From: Candidatus Saccharimonadales bacterium | GTDB taxonomy: Bacteria > Patescibacteriota > Saccharimonadia > Saccharimonadales > JACQNP01 | Reading direction: 5' to 3' | Length of the DNA stretch: 64,000 nt | Assembly (NCBI GenBank): GCA_041742395.1 | Contig: JBGSIS010000005.1 | Coordinates: 18,696 to 82,695, forward strand | Part shown: positions 3,579-47,729 of the stretch, piece after piece | Layout: each line of letters starts with the position of its first letter | Position numbering within the stretch: the first letter of the stretch is position 1 | Position numbers and translations under genes: made by a program | Notes under the pieces: generated by a model | The model's database searches: none | Seen by the model: the letters and a program-made list of their open reading frames with translations, nothing else | What the model was told of the DNA's origin: nothing

Positions 3579-5543
3579 GTGAGTAAGTTTAAAATAGTCA
3601 GTAATTATCAGCCATCTGGGGATCAACCCCAAGCAATAAAAGAATTGACTGAGAACATTTTTAAATCAGTCAGTGAGCAGACACTGCTTGGTGTTACAGG
3701 CTCAGGTAAAACTTTTACCATGGCTAACGTAATTCAGAATATTCAAAAACCAACTTTAGTAATTAGCCATAATAAGACTCTAGCAGCTCAGCTTTATGCT
3801 GAATTTAAAAAGTTCTTTCCAGATAATGCTGTTCATTATTTTGTTAGTTACTTTGATTACTATCAACCTGAAGCTTATATACCTCGTAGCGACACTTATA
3901 TAGAAAAAGATAGTCAAATTAACGAAGAAATAGACCGCATGAGACATGCAGCTACTGATTCTCTTTTGTCGAGAAAAGACGTAATTATAGTAGCAAGTGT
4001 TAGTTGTATTTATGGAATTGGTTCTGTGGATGACTATGATGCGATGTCAATTAAATTAAAAGTAGGCGAAAGACGTGTTAGGGATAAGCTAATAAGGCAG
4101 TTAACAGATATACAATATCAAAGAAATGATATAGATTTTCATAGAGGAACATTCAGAGTTAGGGGTGATGTACTTGATGTTTTCCCTGCAGGTGAAGAGC
4201 TAGCCTATAGGTTAGAGCTTTTTGGTGATGAGATTGACAGAGTTACTCAACTCGATCCACTAACCGGAGAAATCTTAAAAAATCTAGATAAAGTTACAAT
4301 ATACCCAAATAGTCACTATGTGACGCCCAATGAAAAAATTAAGTTTGCTCTATCAAAAATCGAAAAGGAACTTGAAATGAGGATTGGATTTTATAAAAAA
4401 CAAGATAAATATTTAGAAGCCCAAAGAATTCAACAACGAACTAGGTTTGATATTGAAATGTTAGAAGAAACCGGTTTTGTTAAAGGTATTGAAAACTATA
4501 GTAGATATCTTACAAACAGGGAACCTGGGGAACAGCCAGCTACCTTACTAGATTATTTTCCAGATGATTATTTGATGTTTATTGATGAATCCCACATGAC
4601 TATACCTCAGATTCGTGGAATGTATAACGGCGATAGAGCTAGAAAAGAAGTCTTAGTTGAGCATGGATTTAGGCTGCCAAGCGCCTTAGATAACAGGCCA
4701 CTTATGTTTACTGAATTTGAGAAACATATTAATAATGTTGTGTATGTTAGTGCTACTCCAGCTGCTTTCGAGCTTTCTCGAAGCCCAAAGCCTGCAGAGC
4801 AGGTTATTCGCCCAACGGGATTATTGGATCCTGTTATTGAAGTAAGACCGATTGATGGGCAAATTGATGACTTAATTGCTGAGATTAGATCTACGATTGC
4901 CAAACAACAGCGAATTTTAGTCACAACTCTTACAAAAAGAATGTCTGAAGATTTAACAGACTATCTAAAAGACTTAAATATCAAAGTTACCTATCTTCAT
5001 AGCGATGTGGATACTTTAGATAGAACAGATATACTAAGAGATCTTAGGTTAGGTATTTATGATGTAGTTGTGGGTATTAACTTATTAAGGGAAGGATTGG
5101 ATTTACCAGAAGTAAGTCTAGTCGCTATTTTGGATGCTGATAAAGAGGGTTTCCTTAGGAGTGAGCAGGCATTAATTCAGACTGTTGGAAGAGCTGCAAG
5201 GCACGTTGAAGGCCGAGTTATTATGTACGCTGACCGCATAACTGGAAGTATGGAACGTACAATTTACGAAACTAAGCGAAGACGAAAGATTCAAGAAAAA
5301 TATAATATAGATAATAAAGTAACTGCAACTGGTATAGCTAGTGAAGTATCAAAAGGACTTAGGCCTGACTTGCCGGAAGAAGCCAAGAGAGCAAAATTGG
5401 ACCTTAAGAAGATTCCAAAAGACGAATACAAACACCTCATAAAAGATCTAAATTCACAAATGGAAATAGCAGCAGCTAACTTAGAGTTTGAAAAAGCCGC
5501 CGAGCTAAGAGATATAATATCTGACATAACTAGTAAGATGTGA
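3579..5543 (+). CDS. uvrB: Excinuclease ABC subunit B
   Basis: [11 protein letters not shown], Walker [10 protein letters not shown], helicase motifs and the C-terminal UvrB/UvrC interaction helix ([10 protein letters not shown]) are all present. Size is 654 aa. GTG start. Confidence 0.95.
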
Positions 5544-5644
5544 TGGCTATGAACTAAGTTTATGGTAAGCAAAAAATTCATGAATAAGTTGAAATAAATA
5601 CCAAGTTAATTCCCAAAATAAGATTATGTGCGCAAAAATCCTAG

Positions 5645-6754
5645 TTATACTAATAGGTGGGCTTGATCAAATATTTTTTGTCCGTTCATTTTGTTAGGGT
5701 TGTCATTGTATTCTTGCAGAAATGATTTATTTCTAGCTATTAAATAATATAATGTTTCGGGATCCACAATAGTAAGGTGCGATCCGTCCAATATTGTTAT
5801 TCTTACGTTCTTATAATTTTTAAATAATTTCATCCATTCTGAAGGCATAGATGCAAAATCATCATTGAAGCATGTAATATGGATTATGCTTTCTTCGTCA
5901 ATAAATTTGGCTAATTCACCAGCTTCTCCGCTTAATAGTGTAGGTCCAATCGCGACTTGGCTGGCAATTGAAGTTGGATGCAAGTCAATCGTGGATGGGT
6001 AATGGAGGAGTCTACCTAACCCGACTTTACCTGCTAGTTTAACTACCGAAACAGGTTCGTGAATTATATGTCTTGAAAGATTCATAGCATCACTTAATTC
6101 AAATTTTCTAGGAAAACAAGGAGCTATTAGATCAGCAAAGAGTATCTCTTGATTGAATGAATTAGCTAGAGCCAGTATACCCATAGCTACCATTGCACTT
6201 CTAGACTCACCATAGAGTAGACGCTTATTTGGGTCTATGGAATATTTTAGTGAGCTTGATATTTCCTGAGAGAAACTTAAAACAGCTGCTGCTGATTTTG
6301 CTAAAGTTATATTATTAAGTCTAGGGATTTTAATTGATTCGTGATAGCTACCTTCGGCTCCAACGAAAATTGAAGGTACACCTTCATGAATGAATTTTCT
6401 TATCATGTGCTCGTAGTGGCCGCGACTAGTAGTTAACCATGCGCTAGTGTGAATATTTGGTATATCGGTTACTTGACGATTAGTTGGTATACCAATAACT
6501 GCATCGTAATTAAATCCAGCTACTGTAGTAAAACCTAATCTTTGAATATACCCATTAGGTACAGTAGTCTCTTCTAATACACTTGAAATAAAAGTAATAT
6601 TTGAGGATTCTTTTAATTTTTCAATTTCATCAAATAATGATTCTTGTTCTGCACTTAATAAGTCGTTATTTTTAATCAAACTTAATTTAGGATAGTGGGA
6701 TTCGTGGTTGGGTTTGATAAGTTGAGACATAATATTTTTTATGCTTAAAACCAT
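5645..6754 (-). CDS. Hypothetical protein, possibly an alpha/beta-hydrolase fold
   Basis: 369-aa ORF with a GESRSAMVAMG segment resembling a degenerate nucleophile elbow and a C-terminal LDGSH. There is no canonical GxSxG, so the family assignment is weak. Confidence 0.45.
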   Translation of the reverse strand: MVLSIKNIMSQLIKPNHESHYPKLSLIKNNDLLSAEQESLFDEIEKLKESSNITFISSVLEETTVPNGYIQRLGFTTVAGFNYDAVIGIPTNRQVTDIPNIHTSAWLTTSRGHYEHMIRKFIHEGVPSIFVGAEGSYHESIKIPRLNNITLAKSAAAVLSFSQEISSSLKYSIDPNKRLLYGESRSAMVAMGILALANSFNQEILFADLIAPCFPRKFELSDAMNLSRHIIHEPVSVVKLAGKVGLGRLLHYPSTIDLHPTSIASQVAIGPTLLSGEAGELAKFIDEESIIHITCFNDDFASMPSEWMKLFKNYKNVRITILDGSHLTIVDPETLYYLIARNKSFLQEYNDNPNKMNGQKIFDQAHLLV

Positions 6755-25194: not shown

Positions 25195-25761
25195 ATGAAA
25201 AACCCTGAGAAAGGTGCAGGGTGGGAAATAGTAAGAGAGTATACGGAACCAGAATTAGCAATTAAGGCTGGTATACAAGTATTGGATTTAATTGAAAGTG
25301 ACTCAAAATACATTCGAGAGTATGGAAACTACAATCGTCCCGGTCAAGAAAACTTAAAGTCATTTAGATTTTTTGCCTGGCATCCTGGTACTTTTCCGAA
25401 TCACCCAAACACTATTCAGGCCGATCCATTAGAATCCGCTAATGCAAGAGAACTAATTGATTTACACAGAAGATCTTCAAAGGTAGTGTCTCGAAAAGTT
25501 AATGCTGCTCAAATTAATGTATTTGAAGAACAGGGTCATACTTGGAGACACCGAGACAGATTTGTCGGTGAAAGTTTAGTGGTTTCATTATTAGGTTTAG
25601 GTCTAGTTCAAATTAAAGACCCTGTTTTTGGAACTAAACATAGTTATGAGTTGATCCCTGGAGATGCTTTGAAATTAAATAATCCTAGAAAACAATCGGA
25701 AAGGCCCTTGCATAAAGTTAGTAATATAGGAAAAGGAAAAAGAGTTACTTTGATTGAATAA
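25195..25761 (+). CDS. Hypothetical protein (188 aa) translationally coupled to nusA
   Basis: Its ATG immediately follows the nusA TAA. No recognisable motif; it is not YlxR-like. It is followed by a CIRCE hairpin. Confidence 0.5.
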   Translation: MKNPEKGAGWEIVREYTEPELAIKAGIQVLDLIESDSKYIREYGNYNRPGQENLKSFRFFAWHPGTFPNHPNTIQADPLESANARELIDLHRRSSKVVSRKVNAAQINVFEEQGHTWRHRDRFVGESLVVSLLGLGLVQIKDPVFGTKHSYELIPGDALKLNNPRKQSERPLHKVSNIGKGKRVTLIE

Positions 25762-25762
25762 A

Positions 25763-25789
25763 TTAGCACTCAGAGTTGACGAGTGCTAA
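25763..25789 (+). promoter_or_regulatory. CIRCE element (HrcA operator) upstream of clpC
   Basis: A perfect match to the consensus TTAGCACTC-N9-GAGTGCTAA, with N9 = AGAGTTGAC. Confidence 0.75.
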
Positions 25790-25804
25790 TTAATGAATTA
25801 TTAT
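25776..25804 (+). promoter_or_regulatory. Sigma70-like clpC promoter overlapping the CIRCE (-35 TTGACG in the CIRCE spacer, 17 nt, -10 TATTAT)
   Basis: TTGACG at 25776-25781 and TATTAT at 25799-25804. A leader of about 48 nt with SD AAAGGGG precedes the ATG at 25853. Confidence 0.55.
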
Positions 25805-25852: not shown

Positions 25853-28327
25853 ATGATGCCAAACTCACAAAACTTTAATGAATTCTTAAATAACTTAACT
25901 GAAAATGCTCAAGCAAGTATTCGTCATGCTGACGCAATATCTAGGAGCTTTGGAAGTGCTTATATTGGAACTGAACATTTACTACTTGGTGTTTTAGCTC
26001 AAGATTCTTGTATTGGGTCAAAAATTCTTGAAGATGCAGGCGTTACTCTCGATAGGGCGAGATTAGCTTTAAATTTAACTCCAAAGACACTGGTCATAAA
26101 TTATGGCGGCAAAGGACTAAGTGAAACAGCTAAATTAACACTCAGAATGGCCTATGAATTCTCACAGGAATTTAATCAAGAGTACTGCGGAACTGAGCAC
26201 ATTTTATATAGCATTTTAAGTCAAAAAAATGCAAGAGCAACTATTTTGCTTAAAGACATGAACATTGACGTAGAGAAACTTCTTACAGAAATAGAACAGT
26301 TCTTAAATAGACAGCAATATGAAGGCAATGGAGATTCTACTACAAGGAAAAGGTCTAAGAACAAACGAAAAACAGCACTTGATTTCTTCGGTACAGATTT
26401 AACTGCTGAGGCAAGATCAAAAAAACTGGATCCCGTTGTTGGTCGAGAGAATGAAATAAGGAGAGTAATAACTATTCTTAATAGAAGAACAAAAAATAAT
26501 CCTGTTTTAATTGGTGAACCTGGAGTGGGAAAAACAGCAATAGTTGAAGGTCTTGCACAACGAATAATTTCTGATGATGTTCCAGATAGTCTGGTAGATA
26601 AAAGAATAGTTATGCTTGATCTTGCAGGCATGATTGCTGGCACAAAGTATCGAGGGGAATTTGAAGAACGACTCAAAAAAGTAATGACTGAATTAGAGAA
26701 TGACAGTAAGACTATTGTATTCATAGATGAACTTCATTTAATTGTTGGTGCTGGAGCAGCAGAGGGTGCAATGGACGCTGGAAATATTCTAAAACCAGCT
26801 CTTGCTAGAAGTAAAATACAGCTAATTGGAGCTACTACCACCGCAGAATATACTAAGCATATTGAAAAAGATGCAGCACTTGAAAGAAGATTTCAACCTA
26901 TACAAGTTCCCGAAACTTCGCCTACAGAGACAGTAGCTATTTTAAAAGGTCTTAAAAAGCATTATGAAGAATTTCATGGAGTGAGCATTGATGACGTTGT
27001 CATAGAAGACACTGTAATGTTAGCAAAAAGATATATAAATGATAGGTTTCTACCAGACAAGGCAATTGATTTGATTGATGAGACATCTGCACATATCAGG
27101 ATAGATAAGGGACGCACATCTCCAGAAGAGAGAAAACTCAAGAAGGAACTCAAGTTAGTTAATGGTCGAATCGAAGATGCAGTAGATAATGAAGATTACG
27201 AAAGAGCCGCGGAATATAAACAACGCGCAAGCCAAATTAATCAGCAACTTGTCGAATTAGAAAAAGCAAATAAAAACAATAGAACTCTTAAAGTAACAAG
27301 TGAAGATGTTGCATCGGTAGTTTCGCGTATAACAGGAGTGCCGGTAAGTAAGGTTATTAAGTCAGAAGCTAAATACTTGCTTAATTTGGAGAACATTATT
27401 TCCAAGCACGTTATTGGTCAAGAAGAAGCGATAAATGCTGTATCAAGAGCAATAAGGCGAAACAGGGTAGGTATTGCAAGTGAAAAACGACCAATTGGAT
27501 CATTTATTTTCTTGGGTCCCACTGGAGTAGGAAAGACAGAGTTAGCAAGGGTATTATCACGAGAGTTTTTTGGAAGTGAGGATGCTTTAGTAAAAATAGA
27601 TATGAGTGAGTTTAGTGAACGACATACGGTCTCTAGGCTAGTAGGTGCACCAGCAGGATACGTTGGCTATGATGAAGGCGGGCAGTTGACCGATAAAATT
27701 AGACGCCAACCCTATAGTCTAGTGCTTTTTGATGAAATAGAGAAAGCTCATCCGGAAATATTTAATATGTTACTTCAAATATTAGAAGATGGAGTTTTGA
27801 CGGATGCCAAAGGTAGAAAAATAGATTTCACAAATACTATTATAATAATGACCAGTAATCTAGGTGCAGATAAACTTCAAAAAGAAGCACATCTTGGCTT
27901 TCACGTTTCAACCAAAAAAGAAAATCAAGATCTTGAAGAACTACATAAAACCAATCAGGAGAAAGTGCGTGATGAGTTAAAGAAAATGTTAAGACCTGAA
28001 TTATTAAATCGAATTGATAAGACTATAGTTTTCAGGGCTCTGACAGTATCGAACGTTGAGAAGATTTTAGACCTCCAGATTGGTGAATTAAAAAAGAGGT
28101 TAGTAAAGCACGGGATAGGTCTAAAACTAACTAATTCAGCAAAGAAATATTTACTTGATAACGGATATGACCCACTGAATGGAGCCAGGCCTTTAAGACG
28201 ATTAATTCAGGATACAATTGAGGATCATTTATCTATTAAATTACTTGAAGAAGAATATCATAAGGGTGCGATTATAAAGGTTTCGGCTAAAAATAGCGGT
28301 TTAGCTTATAGTATAGTTCAAGAGTAA
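25853..28327 (+). CDS. clpC: ATP-dependent Clp protease ATP-binding subunit ClpC (class III AAA+)
   Basis: Clp-N repeats, two AAA+ modules ([14 protein letters not shown] and [14 protein letters not shown]) and a UVR-like linker are present. I chose the start at MMPNSQ because the 25793 ATG lies inside the promoter and CIRCE. Confidence 0.9.
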
Positions 28328-28339
28328 TGCTAGAATAAA

Positions 28340-29314
28340 ATGGTGAAAACGAAGTTAAGATTATTCACTAATGTGATTTCTATAGTTTTATTAATATTAG
28401 TTGTTTTCGCCTACTTTCAAAGACAACAGATATATGACTGGTACCGACTAAGAGGATATAATCCTTCAGCCGAAATTGTAGCATTAGCTGAATTAACTAC
28501 TATGAACAGTGAAGGTAGGCGATTATTTTACATTAATCAGCCTGATATTCAGGACAAAGAGGAATTTTCGCAAAACTGCACAATTGCTGAAGAAAGTATT
28601 ATTTTAGGTTGCTATGTATCAAATAGCGGAATTTATATTTATGATGTAAAGGATGAAAGATTGAGCGGTATAGAAGAAGTTACTGCTGCTCATGAAATGC
28701 TTCACGCAGCTTACGATAGACTTTCAGATAAAGAAAGAAACAAGATAGATAGCTTAACTAGCGAAGAGCTTACAAAAATAAGTAACGAAAGACTGCTTAA
28801 AACAATTGAAAGTTATCGTAAAAGAGATCCTAGCGTTATACCCAACGAACTCCATTCAATACTTGCTACTGAAGTAAAAGACTTATCACCAGAATTAGAG
28901 GAATATTATTCACGTTATTTCGAAAGGAGACTTACTATTGTTGAGTTATCAGAAAAGTACGAAAGTAATTTTACTGAACTTGAAGACCGAGCCGATAAAT
29001 ACAAGCAGCAGTTAGATAGCTTGAAGCAGGAGATCGATAAACTAAACCAAGAGCTTACCGCGGAAGCAGAAGAATTAAGTGACGATTACGATAGTTTACA
29101 ATCTAGCAGAAATTCTAGCTCCGCTGATGTTTTTAATGAAAACGCAAGATTATATAACTTGAGAGTAAACGAATATAATTATCAAGTCACTATTGTTACC
29201 AAAAAAATAGATAGCTACAATTCAATTCTATCTGATTACAATTCAATAATTACCCAAGAGAACGAACTATACAACGCAATTGACAGCAGACCAAAAACTA
29301 TTAACAGCCAGTAG
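28340..29314 (+). CDS. Hypothetical membrane-anchored protein with an HEXXH motif and a C-terminal coiled-coil
   Basis: N-terminal TM (VISIVLLILVVFAYF), then AAHEMLHAAY (HExxH), then Q/E/L-rich heptads. Confidence 0.5.
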   Translation: MVKTKLRLFTNVISIVLLILVVFAYFQRQQIYDWYRLRGYNPSAEIVALAELTTMNSEGRRLFYINQPDIQDKEEFSQNCTIAEESIILGCYVSNSGIYIYDVKDERLSGIEEVTAAHEMLHAAYDRLSDKERNKIDSLTSEELTKISNERLLKTIESYRKRDPSVIPNELHSILATEVKDLSPELEEYYSRYFERRLTIVELSEKYESNFTELEDRADKYKQQLDSLKQEIDKLNQELTAEAEELSDDYDSLQSSRNSSSADVFNENARLYNLRVNEYNYQVTIVTKKIDSYNSILSDYNSIITQENELYNAIDSRPKTINSQ

Positions 29315-39946: not shown

Positions 39947-40031
39947 GGGCGAGTGGTGGAATTGGTAGACACGCTAGTCTTAGGAACTAGTGCCGCAAGG
40001 CGTGAAGGTTCAAGTCCTTTCTCGCCCACCA
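39947..40031 (+). tRNA. tRNA-Leu (anticodon UAG), class II with a long variable arm and an encoded CCA
   Basis: Acceptor GGGCGAG/CTCGCCC, D-loop AATTGGTAGA, anticodon stem CTAGT/ACTAG with loop CTTAGGA (U33, TAG, G37), variable hairpin GCCGCAAGGC and T-loop GGTTCAAGTCC. Confidence 0.85.
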
Positions 40032-42009: not shown

Positions 42010-43293
42010 ATGCAAGTAAAACACACTAACCCTAAAGACACTGAAGCAGTAATTACTATTGTTGCTTCAACAGTAGAATTACTAAAAATTAAAGAAAACG
42101 TACTTAAAAAGTTAGCTGAGAACGTCAAGATAACTGGATTTCGTCCAGGAAAAGCTCCACTTAATTTAGTCGAGAAACAAGTCGACGAAAATGTATTACA
42201 ATCGGAATTTCTTGATCAGGCAATTAATCAGATTTATCCGCAAGCTGTTAACTCTGAAAAATTACGTCCTGTAGGAAACCCGGAAATTTCTGTTAAAAAA
42301 TTTGTACCGTTTGATTCATTAGAATTTGAAGCAAAAGTTGAAATTGTAGGTAAGATAACTTTACCTGATTATAAGAAGCTTGATCTGCAAAAAGACAAAG
42401 TTTCAGTTACCGCTAAGGACGTCGATGAAGTACTCAAATCTCTACAGAAAAGAATGGGAGAGAAAAAAGACGTTGACCGAAAATCAAAACAAAATGACCA
42501 GGTTTGGATTGATTTTATCGGTAAAGACAAAGATGGAAAGCCAGTCAGTGGTGCTGACGGCAAAGACTACCCTTTAGTACTCGGAAGTAAAACTTTCATT
42601 CCAGGATTTGAAGAAAACCTAGAAGGACTAAAAGCAGGTGACGAAAAAACTTTTACTTTAACTTTCCCTAAGGATTATGGTGTTAAAGCACTTGCTAGTA
42701 AGAAAGTAACATTTACAGTTACTTTGAATAAAGTTCAAGAAGTAGTTGAGCCACAAATTGATGATGAGTTTGCTAAGAAATCTGGACCATTTAATGATTT
42801 AAAAACGCTGAAGGAAGATATTAAGAAGCAACTAACTTTTGAAAAAGAAAATCAAATCGAACGAGAGTATGAATCAAAAATAGTAGAAGAAATAACTGAG
42901 AAGTCAAAAGTAGCCATACCTAATACACTCATAGAAGAACAAAAAGAAATCATGCTAAGAGAATTCAAGCAAAACTTAGCTTATAGAGGACAGACATATA
43001 GCGAGTATCTTGAAATGCAGGGCTTTACAGAAGACGATTTGATCAAGAATGAAGTATTACCAGAAGCCCAGAAGAGAGTAAAGGCAAGTTTGGTCTTAAC
43101 AGAAATTTCTGAAATTGAAAATATTGATGTTAGTATGGAAGAAATCAATGACAGAAAGACTGCATTGAAGTCACAATATCAAGATCAAGCAATGCGAGAC
43201 GAGCTAGATAAGCCAGAAAATCTAAACAGTTTAGCTTCTAGGATTGTGACCGAAAAAACCCTAGCTAAGTTGAAGACGTATATTAAAAAGTAA
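42010..43293 (+). CDS. tig: Trigger factor
   Basis: The N-terminal ribosome-binding motif (GFRPGKAP), an FKBP-like PPIase domain and a C-terminal arm are present. Size is 427 aa. Confidence 0.9.
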   Translation: MQVKHTNPKDTEAVITIVASTVELLKIKENVLKKLAENVKITGFRPGKAPLNLVEKQVDENVLQSEFLDQAINQIYPQAVNSEKLRPVGNPEISVKKFVPFDSLEFEAKVEIVGKITLPDYKKLDLQKDKVSVTAKDVDEVLKSLQKRMGEKKDVDRKSKQNDQVWIDFIGKDKDGKPVSGADGKDYPLVLGSKTFIPGFEENLEGLKAGDEKTFTLTFPKDYGVKALASKKVTFTVTLNKVQEVVEPQIDDEFAKKSGPFNDLKTLKEDIKKQLTFEKENQIEREYESKIVEEITEKSKVAIPNTLIEEQKEIMLREFKQNLAYRGQTYSEYLEMQGFTEDDLIKNEVLPEAQKRVKASLVLTEISEIENIDVSMEEINDRKTALKSQYQDQAMRDELDKPENLNSLASRIVTEKTLAKLKTYIKK

Positions 43294-43297
43294 TAAT

Positions 43298-43324
43298 TTA
43301 GCACTCTTGACACTAGAGTGCTAA
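43298..43324 (+). promoter_or_regulatory. CIRCE element (HrcA operator) upstream of clpP
   Basis: A perfect match TTAGCACTC-N9-GAGTGCTAA, with N9 = TTGACACTA. Confidence 0.75.
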
Positions 43325-43336
43325 ATAGACTACTAT
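43307..43336 (+). promoter_or_regulatory. Sigma70-like clpP promoter overlapping the CIRCE (-35 TTGACA in the CIRCE spacer, 18 nt, -10 TACTAT)
   Basis: TTGACA at 43307-43312 and TACTAT at 43331-43336. SD AAGGA precedes the ATG at 43361. Confidence 0.5.
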
Positions 43337-43360
43337 ATATTCATAATTAAGGATGTATTT

Positions 43361-43957
43361 ATGAATAAACCACAAAATTCAGTATTAGTTCCAACCGTTA
43401 TAGAAACCGATGGAAGAATGGAGCGTGCATTTGACATCTATTCTCGGCTGCTTAAAGATAGGATTATATTTTTAGGTTCAGATGTTAATGAACACACCGC
43501 AAACTTAGTAGTGGCTCAATTATTATTTCTAGATAATGAAGACTCTAAGAAAGACATATATTTCTATATAAATAGTCCTGGTGGTAGTGTTTATGACGCT
43601 CTAGCGATTTACGACACAATGCAATACGTAAAAAGCGACATTCAAACTGTAGGAATTGGCGTGCAAGCTTCGGCAGCGGCTTTCTTGCTAAGTAGTGGAA
43701 CTGTAGGTAAACGAATGATATTACCAAACGCTACTGTAATGATTCATCAGCCTTCTTCCGGAACAAGAGGAAAAGTCACTGATATGGAAATAGACCTAAA
43801 AGAGTCAATTCGAATAAAGCACCGCTTAAACGAAATTATGGCAGAAAATACAGGGCAGACAGTAAAACGCATAAATGAAGATATGGAGCGTGATTATTGG
43901 ATGACTGCAGATGAAGCAAAGAAGTACGGTGTAGTAGACAAAGTAATCAAGAAATAA
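43361..43957 (+). CDS. clpP: ATP-dependent Clp protease proteolytic subunit
   Basis: The ClpP region around the catalytic residues (Ser in [11 protein letters not shown], His in MIHQPSSG, Asp) is present. Size is 198 aa. Confidence 0.95.
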
Positions 43958-44138
43958 AAAACTTGACAGTATAAGTTTGATACTTCACACTACTACGATA
44001 AGAAGTAGTGTACATTCGGGCTGTGCTAGTTAGTGCGCAAATCTAGCACCAAAAACGTTCGTGTAGTGGTCTTCGGATTTTCAAACAACTAAATTTATAA
44101 ATATTAATCGCTAATTTATAGTGGGAGTAGAGTTGTCT

Positions 44139-47100
44139 ATGGCAAAAAGCATTGCGAAAGCAAGTACTTTAAAAAAATCTAAAAGAAAATATTTTTCTGA
44201 AAATAATCAGTTAATTGATCTACCGAATTTGGTTGATCATCAAAACAAATCTTTTCAGTGGTTCGTTGATGAAGGTTTAGGAGAGCTTTTGGCTGAAATC
44301 AGTCCAATCGACGACTATACATCAACCAAATTATCATTAAGATTTAAAGATTATAAATTTGAAAATCCCAAAATCACAGAAGATGAAGCTAGAGAAAATA
44401 ACGTAAGTTATGAAGCACCATTAAAGGCAGTTGTTGAACTTACCAATAAAGTAACTGGAGAAGTTAAAGACCAAGAAATCTACCTTGGTGATTACCCATG
44501 GATGACAAACCGTGGAACTTTTGTAATTAACGGTGCCGAGAGAGTTGTTGTATCCCAGTTGATTCGTTCAGCAGGTGTTTTCTTTACGTCAGAAATACAA
44601 GGAACAAAGAAAGCGTATGGAGCAAAAGTAATTCCTGGAAGGGGTGCTTGGCTTGAATTCGAAACTGCCACTTCAGGAGCTATGTTTGTTAAAATCGATC
44701 GTAAAAGAAAGATAGCAGTTACAACTTTACTTAAGGCTCTTGGAATGACTGAATCTCAAATCAAAGAAGCTTTTAAGCATGTTAACCAGGGTGCGGTAAA
44801 TTATATAGAATCTACCTTAGATAAAGACCCCAGCAAAGGTACAAACGAGGCATTAATCGAAGTTTATAGAAGATTACGACCAGGTGACTTAGCTACCGTA
44901 GATAATGCCAGAAGCTTAATTGAGAACATGTTCTATAACTACAAGCGTTTTGACTTTAGTCGGGTTGGTCGCTATAAAATTAATAAGCGTCTTGACTTGG
45001 ATATACCTAACACTATCGATAACCGTGTAATGCGACTAGAAGACCTGAAAGCTATTGTTGCTGAGATTATACGACTAAATAATACTCAAGAGCCGGCTGA
45101 CGACATAGATTCTTTAGCTAATCGAAGAGTTAAATTGGTTGGTGAACTCGTACAAAGACAATTCAGGATTGGTCTACTAAGAATGGAAAGAAATACCAAA
45201 GACCGAATGAGCATGTGCGAAATAGAAACTGTAACTCCAGCACAATTAATTAATGCTAGACCTATAGTTGCAGCTGTTCGGGAATTTTTTGCTAGCTCAC
45301 AACTTTCTCAATTCATGGATCAGATTAATCCACTTAGTGAATTAGCTCATAAAAGAAGACTTAGTTCTATGGGTCCTGGCGGGTTGAGCCGAGAAAGAGC
45401 AGGTTTCGAAGTTCGTGATGCTCACGCTACTCACTACGGTAGAATTTGTGCTGTTGAGACACCAGAGGGTGCAAACATTGGACTAGTTCTAAACCTAGCA
45501 AGCTACGCCACAATTAATGATTATGGGTTCGTAGAAACTCCATATAGAAAAGTTATCAACGCCGTGACCTCTAAAGAGGCAGTTGGACATATAGCATCAG
45601 TTAATCTTGAAGACGAGAATGGTAAGGTAATTGTAAAAGCAGGATCAAAAATATCATCAGATGATGCAAAAAAACTCGCTGCAGTTAAAGCTCAAAAAAC
45701 ATGGCCTGTTCGAGCAAAAGTAACAAATGATGTAATTTACCTTGATGCGTCAGAAGAAGAGTCGGCCGTTATTGCAAGCGCAAGCGAAAAGTATGACAAA
45801 GATGGTTATTTTGAAAGCGAACGTGTTTCAGCTAGAAGTTATCTTAAAGCCGGTGAGGTAGATTCTGATGACGTTACTCATATAGATGCATCTAATAAAC
45901 AAATTATTGGATCTAGTGCTGGACTTATCCCGTTTATTGAAAAAAACTATGTTTATCGATCACTTATGGGAAGCAACCAGCAGAGACAAGCTGTACCTCT
46001 TATTAACCCGCGTTCGCCAATTGTCGGTACCGGTTTAGAAGAAGTAGTTGCTAGAAATAGTGGACAACTTGTTGTTGCTGAAGATGATGGAGAAGTAACT
46101 AAAGCTACTGGAGACGAGGTTGTAGTCAAGTATAAAACAGGTTCAGTAAGCTATAAGCCACAGCATTTCATTAGAAGTAACGAGGGAAGTTCAATTAACC
46201 AGAAAGTTGTTGTTGAATCTGGCGATAAAGTAAAGTCTGGCGATCCAATTATTGAAGGTATGTCTGTATCTGATGGCGAACTAGCTCTTGGAAGGGATCT
46301 TCGTGTGGCATTCATGCCATGGGCCGGATATAACTTTGAGGATGCGATAATCGTTTCTCGCAAACTTGTTGAAGATGATGATCTTACGTCTGTTCATATT
46401 GTTGATTTTATGGTTGAAGTTCGTGAAACAAAACTAGGTCCAGAAATTGTAACTCGTGACATACCTAATGTTTCAGAAGATGCCCTTAGACATCTAGATG
46501 AAGAAGGCATTGTTACAATTGGCGCAGAAGTTCATCCAGGTGATATTCTTGTAGGTAAAATTACTCCTAAAGGAGAGCAGGAACTAAGCAGCGAAGAGCG
46601 TCTACTAAGAGCAATATTTGGTGAAAAGGCAAAAGAAGTTAGAGATACTTCTCAACGTATGCCTAATGGTAAGCACGGTAAAGTTGTTGGAGTAAAAATA
46701 TTTTCTAAAGAAAATGGACATGATCTTAAAGCTGGTGTAATTATGCAGATTCAAGTATTCGTTGCACAAATGAGAAAGATTTCTGTTGGCGACAAACTTG
46801 GTGGCCGTCACGGTAATAAGGGTGTCATTGCTAGAGTACTTCCTATTGAAGACATGCCATTTACAGAAGACGGTGAACCAGTCGACATTATCCTTAACCC
46901 TCTAGGTGTGCCTAGTCGTATGAATATCGGGCAGCTTTTTGAAACTCATCTTGGTATGGCTGCTCACATGCTTGGCATGAAAGTTGCCAGCCCATCTTTT
47001 GACGGAGTCGAGATTAAGAAAATCCAAGAACTACTTAAAGAAGCTGGTTTACCAGAAGATGGAAAACAACAATTGTTTGACGGTAGAACTGGTGAGCCAT

Positions 47101-47729
47101 TCTCAGAACGAACAACAGTTGGTGCCATGTATATGATTAAGCTTAACCATATGATTGCTGATAAAATTCATGCTCGTTCTACTGGTCCTTACACAATGGT
47201 CACCCAACAGCCTCTCGGTGGAAAAGCTCAGAACGGTGGTCAGAGATTTGGAGAGATGGAAGTTTGGGCTCTAGAAGCATACGGGGCAGCAAACACTCTT
47301 CAGGAAATGCTTACTATCAAGTCAGATGATGTTTATGGTAGGTCAAAAGCATACGAGTCAATTATCAAACAAACAGAAATTGTTGGACCTAAAGTACCAG
47401 AAAGCTTTAATGTTTTAGTTAAAGAGTTACAAGGACTTGGCTTAAAGGTTGATTTGGTCTCAAACGATCAAGTTATAGATGCAGAAGAAGTACTAGCAGA
47501 AAACATTAAGGATGAAGCTGCACACCTTTCAGACGTTGCAGTACCAGCTCCGTTAGCTTCGGAAGTTGATGTAACCGAGGATGCAGTATTAGGTGAGTTT
47601 GATGTTATCGATCTAAGCGATACGAACACACAGGTTTCAACTATTGATGAGCAAGAAATTGCCGAGATGGTGGCCGAAGAAGATATAACAGTTGCAATTG
47701 ATGAACAGGAAGGAAAGGAGATAGCTTAA
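44139..47729 (+). CDS. rpoB: DNA-directed RNA polymerase beta subunit
   Basis: All conserved RpoB regions are present (rifampicin cluster region, GDKLGGRHGNKGV). I chose the ATG at 44139 with GGGAG upstream; the ORF track starts at GTG 44121. Confidence 0.95.
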   Translation: MAKSIAKASTLKKSKRKYFSENNQLIDLPNLVDHQNKSFQWFVDEGLGELLAEISPIDDYTSTKLSLRFKDYKFENPKITEDEARENNVSYEAPLKAVVELTNKVTGEVKDQEIYLGDYPWMTNRGTFVINGAERVVVSQLIRSAGVFFTSEIQGTKKAYGAKVIPGRGAWLEFETATSGAMFVKIDRKRKIAVTTLLKALGMTESQIKEAFKHVNQGAVNYIESTLDKDPSKGTNEALIEVYRRLRPGDLATVDNARSLIENMFYNYKRFDFSRVGRYKINKRLDLDIPNTIDNRVMRLEDLKAIVAEIIRLNNTQEPADDIDSLANRRVKLVGELVQRQFRIGLLRMERNTKDRMSMCEIETVTPAQLINARPIVAAVREFFASSQLSQFMDQINPLSELAHKRRLSSMGPGGLSRERAGFEVRDAHATHYGRICAVETPEGANIGLVLNLASYATINDYGFVETPYRKVINAVTSKEAVGHIASVNLEDENGKVIVKAGSKISSDDAKKLAAVKAQKTWPVRAKVTNDVIYLDASEEESAVIASASEKYDKDGYFESERVSARSYLKAGEVDSDDVTHIDASNKQIIGSSAGLIPFIEKNYVYRSLMGSNQQRQAVPLINPRSPIVGTGLEEVVARNSGQLVVAEDDGEVTKATGDEVVVKYKTGSVSYKPQHFIRSNEGSSINQKVVVESGDKVKSGDPIIEGMSVSDGELALGRDLRVAFMPWAGYNFEDAIIVSRKLVEDDDLTSVHIVDFMVEVRETKLGPEIVTRDIPNVSEDALRHLDEEGIVTIGAEVHPGDILVGKITPKGEQELSSEERLLRAIFGEKAKEVRDTSQRMPNGKHGKVVGVKIFSKENGHDLKAGVIMQIQVFVAQMRKISVGDKLGGRHGNKGVIARVLPIEDMPFTEDGEPVDIILNPLGVPSRMNIGQLFETHLGMAAHMLGMKVASPSFDGVEIKKIQELLKEAGLPEDGKQQLFDGRTGEPFSERTTVGAMYMIKLNHMIADKIHARSTGPYTMVTQQPLGGKAQNGGQRFGEMEVWALEAYGAANTLQEMLTIKSDDVYGRSKAYESIIKQTEIVGPKVPESFNVLVKELQGLGLKVDLVSNDQVIDAEEVLAENIKDEAAHLSDVAVPAPLASEVDVTEDAVLGEFDVIDLSDTNTQVSTIDEQEIAEMVAEEDITVAIDEQEGKEIA

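Follow-up and report, generated by a model that had tools for sequence, protein, structure and literature searches.

A predicted HrcA operator (CIRCE) enclosing the -35 element of the clpP promoter in Saccharibacteria

The class I operators of the HrcA-CIRCE system have been described in B. subtilis, Chlamydia, and many phyla, where they are built on a 9-N9-9 consensus, lie in or next to the promoter, and serve the chaperone operons groESL and hrcA-grpE-dnaK. In B. subtilis, the CIRCE elements are located downstream of the transcription start. The release of HrcA through titration of GroEL under proteotoxic stress is established biology (PMC3842655, PMC8762339), and groESL is generally regarded as the sole invariable target of HrcA (PMC545781). 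The clp genes, by contrast, are generally assigned to CtsR in Firmicutes (PMC3842655), whose regulon (class III) comprises clpP, clpC, and the clpC-radA cluster and whose operator is a direct heptad repeat read by a different repressor family. Two described cases come closer to the locus analyzed here. According to the summary of Chastanet and Msadek (2003) given in PMC3842655, clpP of Streptococcus salivarius is controlled by both CtsR and HrcA; in Mycoplasma pneumoniae, transcription of lon starts from the tig promoter and is under the control of a CIRCE between the two genes (PMC7737663).

The 64-kb stretch of Candidatus Saccharimonadales DNA analyzed here (hereafter the window) carries two elements of this kind, one in front of clpP and one in front of clpC (table 1). 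A pattern search showed that the clpP element, TTAGCACTC-TTGACACTA-GAGTGCTAA, matches TTAGCACTC-N9-GAGTGCTAA with 0 mismatches, and that a second perfect CIRCE, TTAGCACTC-AGAGTTGAC-GAGTGCTAA, lies 17,535 nt from it. A preliminary description of this DNA had claimed an exact consensus at clpP, with identical arms in two copies ~17.5 kb apart, each 5' of a Clp gene; the exact pattern match, the measured distance, and the Pfam assignments of ClpP and ClpC confirmed these statements. It had also placed the element right after the tig stop, and the gap between the tig stop codon (43291-43293) and the CIRCE start is indeed 4 nt, while 36 nt separate the end of the CIRCE from the clpP ATG. Such elements are not expected by chance: at three or fewer mismatches, the window contained 2 CIRCE matches versus 0.03 expected from 100 dinucleotide-preserving shuffles, none of which gave two matches, and no further CIRCE-like site was found in the 64 kb even at five or fewer mismatches.

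Table 1. Features at the two CIRCE elements (positions within the window)
Feature	Coordinates	Strand	Remarks
tig (trigger factor)	42010..43293	+	Pfam Trigger_N, FKBP_C, Trigger_C; upstream neighbor of clpP
CIRCE operator (predicted)	43298..43324	.	left arm 43298-43306, 9-nt spacer 43307-43315, right arm 43316-43324
Predicted -35, TTGACA	43307..43312	+	promoter scan; nested in the CIRCE spacer
Predicted -10, TACTAT	43331..43336	+	promoter scan; 18 nt after the -35
Putative Shine-Dalgarno-like AAGGA	43349..43353	+	7 nt before the clpP ATG; read from the sequence
clpP (198 aa)	43361..43957	+	Pfam CLP_protease, E = 4e-78; predicted regulated gene
Sister CIRCE upstream of clpC	25763..25789	.	-35 TTGACG 25776-25781, -10 TATTAT 25799-25804
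clpC (824 aa)	25853..28327	+	Pfam Clp_N x2, AAA, AAA_lid_9, UVR, AAA_2, ClpB_D2-small

The spacer of the clpP element harbors a predicted -35, and the combination TTGACA-18 nt-TACTAT, to which the preliminary description had drawn attention, proved to be the best promoter-like match of the region (10 of 12 positions). The count of promoter-like matches in the region was not above that of shuffles (6 vs. 5.2). At the clpC copy, the corresponding arrangement is TTGACG-17 nt-TATTAT. With the -35 in the spacer and the -10 located 18 nt on, the clpP CIRCE lies within the promoter, as do HrcA operators. Transcription of clpP is predicted to start near 43343 and to yield a leader of ~17 nt with the AAGGA. 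Because the -35 is inside the spacer, the predicted clpP transcript does not contain the CIRCE. Of the earlier interpretation, the part that stood was a CIRCE overlapping the clpP promoter, for which the comparative data described below were strong; an RNA hairpin role at the tig 3' end was the part that did not.

The true start of clpC is the ATG at 25853, and an LGF ClpP-docking loop is present at residue 681 of ClpC; the genes behind the two CIRCEs therefore specify the two parts of a single protease. Directly after clpP comes rpoB and not clpX (43361-47729 of the window), and the window showed no ClpX-type ORF; given its docking loop, ClpC may be the principal, or even the sole, partner of ClpP encoded in this neighborhood. 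Between nusA and the clpC CIRCE, a 188-aa ORF without a Pfam match (25195-25761, + strand) was observed, the stop codon of which lies 1 nt ahead of the CIRCE; thus, both CIRCEs start immediately after the stop of the upstream gene, in keeping with a compact genome. Close behind clpC, between clpC and radA, is a 324-aa ORF without a Pfam family (28340-29314, + strand), which together with radA probably shares the CIRCE-controlled clpC transcription unit. clpC and radA are adjacent in B. subtilis, too. The 324-aa ORF is kept between clpC and radA in a metagenome locus (L129, 33% identity) and in Southlakia epibionticum, where its counterpart SEML1_0511 (999 bp) is zincin/M48-like by structure-based annotation (PMC10633639 supplements). 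Rfam recognized no known RNA family at the CIRCE; its sole match in the window was a single tRNA gene (RF00005, 58 bits, 39947-40028, + strand) between rsmD and hisS.

We addressed the conservation of the clpP element in 80 clpP loci, with one genome per species and CIRCE called at three or fewer mismatches. Among one-genome-per-species contigs, relatives of the window ClpP at up to 90% identity were from Candidatus Saccharibacteria/Saccharimonadales, and the gene order hisS-(orf)-tig-clpP-rpoB was common to the window and these relatives, which identifies the window as part of a CPR (TM7) genome. A CIRCE was located 17-117 nt upstream of clpP in L001-L018, L020, L035-L038, and L043, and a perfect CIRCE preceded the clpC of a fused clpC-clpP unit in L022-L024. 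In total, 27 of the 38 Saccharibacteria-type loci (those not assigned to other phyla) had a CIRCE before clpP or the fused clpC-clpP, and none was detected anywhere in the ~6.5 kb examined for each of the ~40 clpP loci of other phyla. The element was thus kept at the orthologous position among species whose ClpP proteins are only 60-90% identical. About 11 Saccharibacteria-type loci, one of which has an assembly gap, were without the element, so CIRCE control would not be universal in the phylum. The fused arrangement, with clpC and clpP ~10 nt apart (clpC about 505-2991, clpP from 3001), was observed in L022-L024 and also in L030, where the ~500 nt of sequence available before clpC contained no CIRCE. 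In L026, L027, L031, and L032, the tig stop abuts the clpP ATG, leaving no intergenic region and no CIRCE; clpP in these loci appears to be co-transcribed with tig, the module having been lost or never gained. When 32 distinct clpP-upstream elements were compared, the information per position was 1.89 bits in the left arm and 1.78 bits in the right arm, but only 0.45 bits in the spacer and 0.18 and 0.28 bits in the two flanks. Arms that are near-invariant while the spacer and flanks drift are the footprint of a protein-binding site.

The promoter geometry was conserved together with the operator. All 31 distinct orthologous elements had a TTGAC-like hexamer within the CIRCE spacer; its first base was at spacer position 1 in 11 elements (including the window clpP element), at position 3 in 3, and at position 5 in 17 (including the window clpC element). 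In each of the 31, a TAnnnT followed 16-18 nt after the -35, whereas none of the other spacings between 8 and 29 nt was represented in more than four elements. The position of the -10 consequently tracks the -35 and not the arms, which indicates genuine promoters of the sigma-70 type, in which the operator arms bracket the -35 and extend across the upstream half of the interval between the -35 and the -10. In several relatives (L001, L002, L008, L016, L017, L020, and L035-L038), just 6-8 nt separate the predicted -10 from the clpP ATG and a Shine-Dalgarno sequence is lacking, implying leaderless clpP mRNAs.

A metagenome scan with the pattern TTAGCACTC-N4-TTGAC-GAGTGCTAA provided 120 further loci (L081-L200). 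Every clpP locus among them (eight classified loci, L112, and the truncated L171 and L176) was syntenic with the window, with tig and/or rpoB at 41-84% identity, and the clpC loci L101, L129, and L164 shared the order nusA..CIRCE-clpC-orf-radA. The motif also preceded groES-groEL in five loci (L083, L108, L109, L123, and L128), and the GroEL of L123 corresponds to an NCBI protein labelled Candidatus Saccharibacteria bacterium; the same element thus stands before canonical class I genes in the Saccharibacteria lineage. The order CIRCE-hrcA-grpE-dnaK was found in L139, L183, and L106 (in L106, hrcA alone was examined). Close relatives of these three HrcAs are labelled Parcubacteria, Moranbacteria, and Kuenenbacteria, and the motif before hrcA-grpE-dnaK was seen only in CPR phyla other than Saccharibacteria.

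Pfam revealed no PF01628 domain in the window ORFs of at least 120 aa, and neither tblastn nor an HMM built from CPR HrcAs detected hrcA in the window or in the Saccharibacteria loci among the 200 loci, the matches being confined to the three non-Saccharibacteria loci. Profile searches of a 5.8-billion-protein set and a 1.84-billion representative set returned only Parcubacteria-type or unlabelled HrcAs, and none of the best 240 CPR HrcA relatives listed carried a Saccharibacteria label. A B. subtilis HrcA sequence, confirmed as PF01628 by Pfam, served only as a probe, and no conclusion depends on it. The cultivated Saccharibacterium S. epibionticum ML1, however, has an annotated HrcA, SEML1_0720 (729 bp, K03705, PF01628 + PF03444), whose domains match the 1STZ HrcA structure and whose gene is directly upstream of grpE and dnaK (PMC10633639 supplements). 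With no Saccharibacteria hrcA in the loci and no labelled profile match, the evidence for the repressor in the lineage is thus one published annotation table. The layouts tig..clpP..rpoB-rpoC and nusA-clpC-orf-radA of S. epibionticum, taken from the same supplements, are those of the window. HrcA therefore exists in the Saccharibacteria lineage, and we infer that the genome from which the window derives carries hrcA as well. In the Tn-seq table of S. epibionticum, hrcA, grpE, and dnaK are mostly ES, with hrcA flagged ES in all three call columns, and clpP and clpC are NE (PMC10633639 supplementary file 1). The flag on hrcA could mean either that loss of the repressor is harmful or, as hrcA is the first gene of the operon, that insertions exert polar effects on the essential genes grpE and dnaK. 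The CPR HrcAs of our loci are short, at 225-245 aa (L139, 1353-2117; L183, 4053-4730; L106, ~5435-6150 on the - strand), and their similarity to the Pfam HrcA C-terminal model is confined to its distal part (profile positions 87-213); a segment of the 343-aa B. subtilis-type HrcA therefore appears to be absent from them.

We considered other explanations for the palindrome. The preliminary description had suggested a probable additional role for it as an RNA hairpin at the tig 3' end, and in its extreme form this reading would make it mainly an intrinsic terminator or stabilizer of tig whose closeness to clpP is incidental. The start of the element just past the tig stop and an RNA fold of -17.5 kcal/mol (z = -4.2 vs. 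shuffles) are in agreement with such a role; however, no U-tract follows the stem (ATAGACTACT), and no terminator was called on the + strand, the lone call being on the - strand, where no gene ends. The position of the element is also uncoupled from tig: in L035-L038, where tig lies on the opposite strand, downstream, and divergent genes lie upstream, the element is still found 17 nt before clpP, and in L009, L013, and L014, 500-850 nt lie between tig and the element. Moreover, the 19 arm deviations comprised 9 unpaired, 5 compensated, and 5 G-T cases, the predicted clpP transcription start is downstream of the element, and an identical element precedes clpC and groES. Thus, a stem is present, but the features of an intrinsic terminator of tig are lacking, and we regard a mainly RNA-level role as unlikely. 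Chance palindromes, or a dispersed repeat without a regulatory role, would fit the restriction to two copies in the window and the unexceptional number of promoter-like matches noted above, but not the excess over the shuffled expectation, the lack of further copies at relaxed stringency, the retention of the orthologous position amid unconserved flanks, or the tight coupling of the -10 to the -35; this explanation is exceedingly improbable.

It is also conceivable that the element genuinely serves the clpP promoter as an operator but is read in Saccharibacteria by a regulator other than a canonical HrcA, as hrcA was not found in the Saccharibacteria loci searched and the Saccharibacteria label was missing among the best 240 CPR HrcA relatives listed. 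The arms, however, are the exact HrcA consensus, in sister CPR lineages the same motif is immediately followed by genes for short PF01628 HrcAs, and in S. epibionticum a K03705/PF01628/PF03444 protein adjoins grpE-dnaK. We consider such a substitution quite improbable, a little more so than the hairpin role. CtsR is a separate candidate, since it controls the same genes in Firmicutes; the heptad repeat RGTCAAA-NAN-RGTCAAA at three or fewer mismatches gave 15 matches in the window versus 13 expected, none of them upstream of clpP or clpC, and CtsR control was rejected.

We therefore prefer HrcA control: the element is very probably an operator for the heat-shock repressor HrcA over a sigma-70-type clpP promoter, through which clpP would be derepressed together with clpC and groESL. 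By its sequence, position, footprint, and lineage context, the predicted operator is a bona fide CIRCE. The arms lie on either side of the -35, the right one occupying the first half of the interval up to the -10; therefore, an HrcA dimer bound to the arms would exclude RNA polymerase and block the use of the promoter by steric repression. As no terminator was predicted between tig and clpP, bound HrcA may act on read-through too, as a roadblock to polymerases arriving from tig. By analogy with characterized HrcA systems, HrcA would need GroEL to stay active; under stress, unfolded proteins would titrate GroEL, HrcA would leave the DNA, and clpP, clpC, and groESL would be derepressed together.

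Compared with the class I HrcA-CIRCE operators, the clpP element has the same 9-N9-9 consensus and location in the promoter, and the GroEL-dependent repressor logic is presumed to be the same (PMC3842655, PMC8762339, PMC545781), whereas the targets here are the protease genes clpP and clpC in place of chaperone operons. The S. salivarius clpP gene, with a CIRCE upstream as in the window, already provides an example of clpP under HrcA control, as described in PMC3842655; there HrcA acts with CtsR, whereas in the window the CIRCE is the only recognizable operator, with no CtsR box at clpP or clpC. The M. pneumoniae locus has the same layout of a trigger factor gene, a CIRCE, and the gene of an ATP-dependent protease in a reduced genome (PMC7737663), but its protease is Lon and not ClpP, and the window element adds a -35 and a -10 of its own. 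The CtsR regulon shares the genes clpP, clpC, and clpC-radA with the set described here, but differs in its repressor family and in its operator, the direct repeat being no more frequent here than by chance.

To our knowledge, next to nothing is known of how Saccharibacteria and other CPR bacteria regulate their genes, and a full-text literature search for HrcA or CIRCE in these groups found no relevant paper. New here are the CPR/Saccharibacteria lineage, the conservation of the module across the phylum, though not in every member, and the apparent lack of CtsR-type control; the textbook system is extended and not overturned, a familiar switch being set on an unusual target gene. The predicted module is kept through rearrangements, including fusion to one clpC-clpP unit in some lineages, and appears to be absent from others, possibly host-associated, where clpP would ride on tig. 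On balance, we lean toward the proposal that in Saccharibacteria, and perhaps in CPR bacteria more widely, HrcA/CIRCE took over the role that CtsR has in Firmicutes, so that one GroEL-titrated repressor would govern the chaperones (groESL, probably dnaK) and ClpCP. If true, these tiny genomes would have a single-switch proteostasis regulon based on a stereotyped module whose operator encloses the -35. The results offer a testable regulon, with groESL, clpC, and clpP under one repressor, and reveal the shape of a native Saccharibacteria promoter: TTGACx, 16-18 nt, TAnnnT, often leaderless. Since Saccharibacteria are now open to genetic manipulation (PMC10633639), the compact operator/promoter module could become a stress-inducible expression tool in these organisms.

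The placement of the -35 within the spacer is not specific to Saccharibacteria, an idea that we rejected. In the metagenome sample, the genes downstream of the module were mostly hsp20 (54 loci) and clpB-like (22 loci), plus dnaJ, and many of the hsp20/clpB-type contigs were Firmicutes-like and from gut metagenomes. The module is thus common before hsp20, clpB, and others, and the design itself is therefore widespread. These Firmicutes-like contigs (hsp20, clpB, dnaJ, and groES) have an identical architecture, TTAGCACTC-N4-TTGAC-GAGTGCTAA and then a -10, but they serve other targets, with clpP in none of the non-Saccharibacteria loci. This distribution suggests that hsp20 and clpB belong to a putatively large HrcA regulon in the gut-metagenome organisms concerned. 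The -10 that comes after the module at the hsp20 and clpB-like loci is of the extended type, for example GTGCTATAAC.
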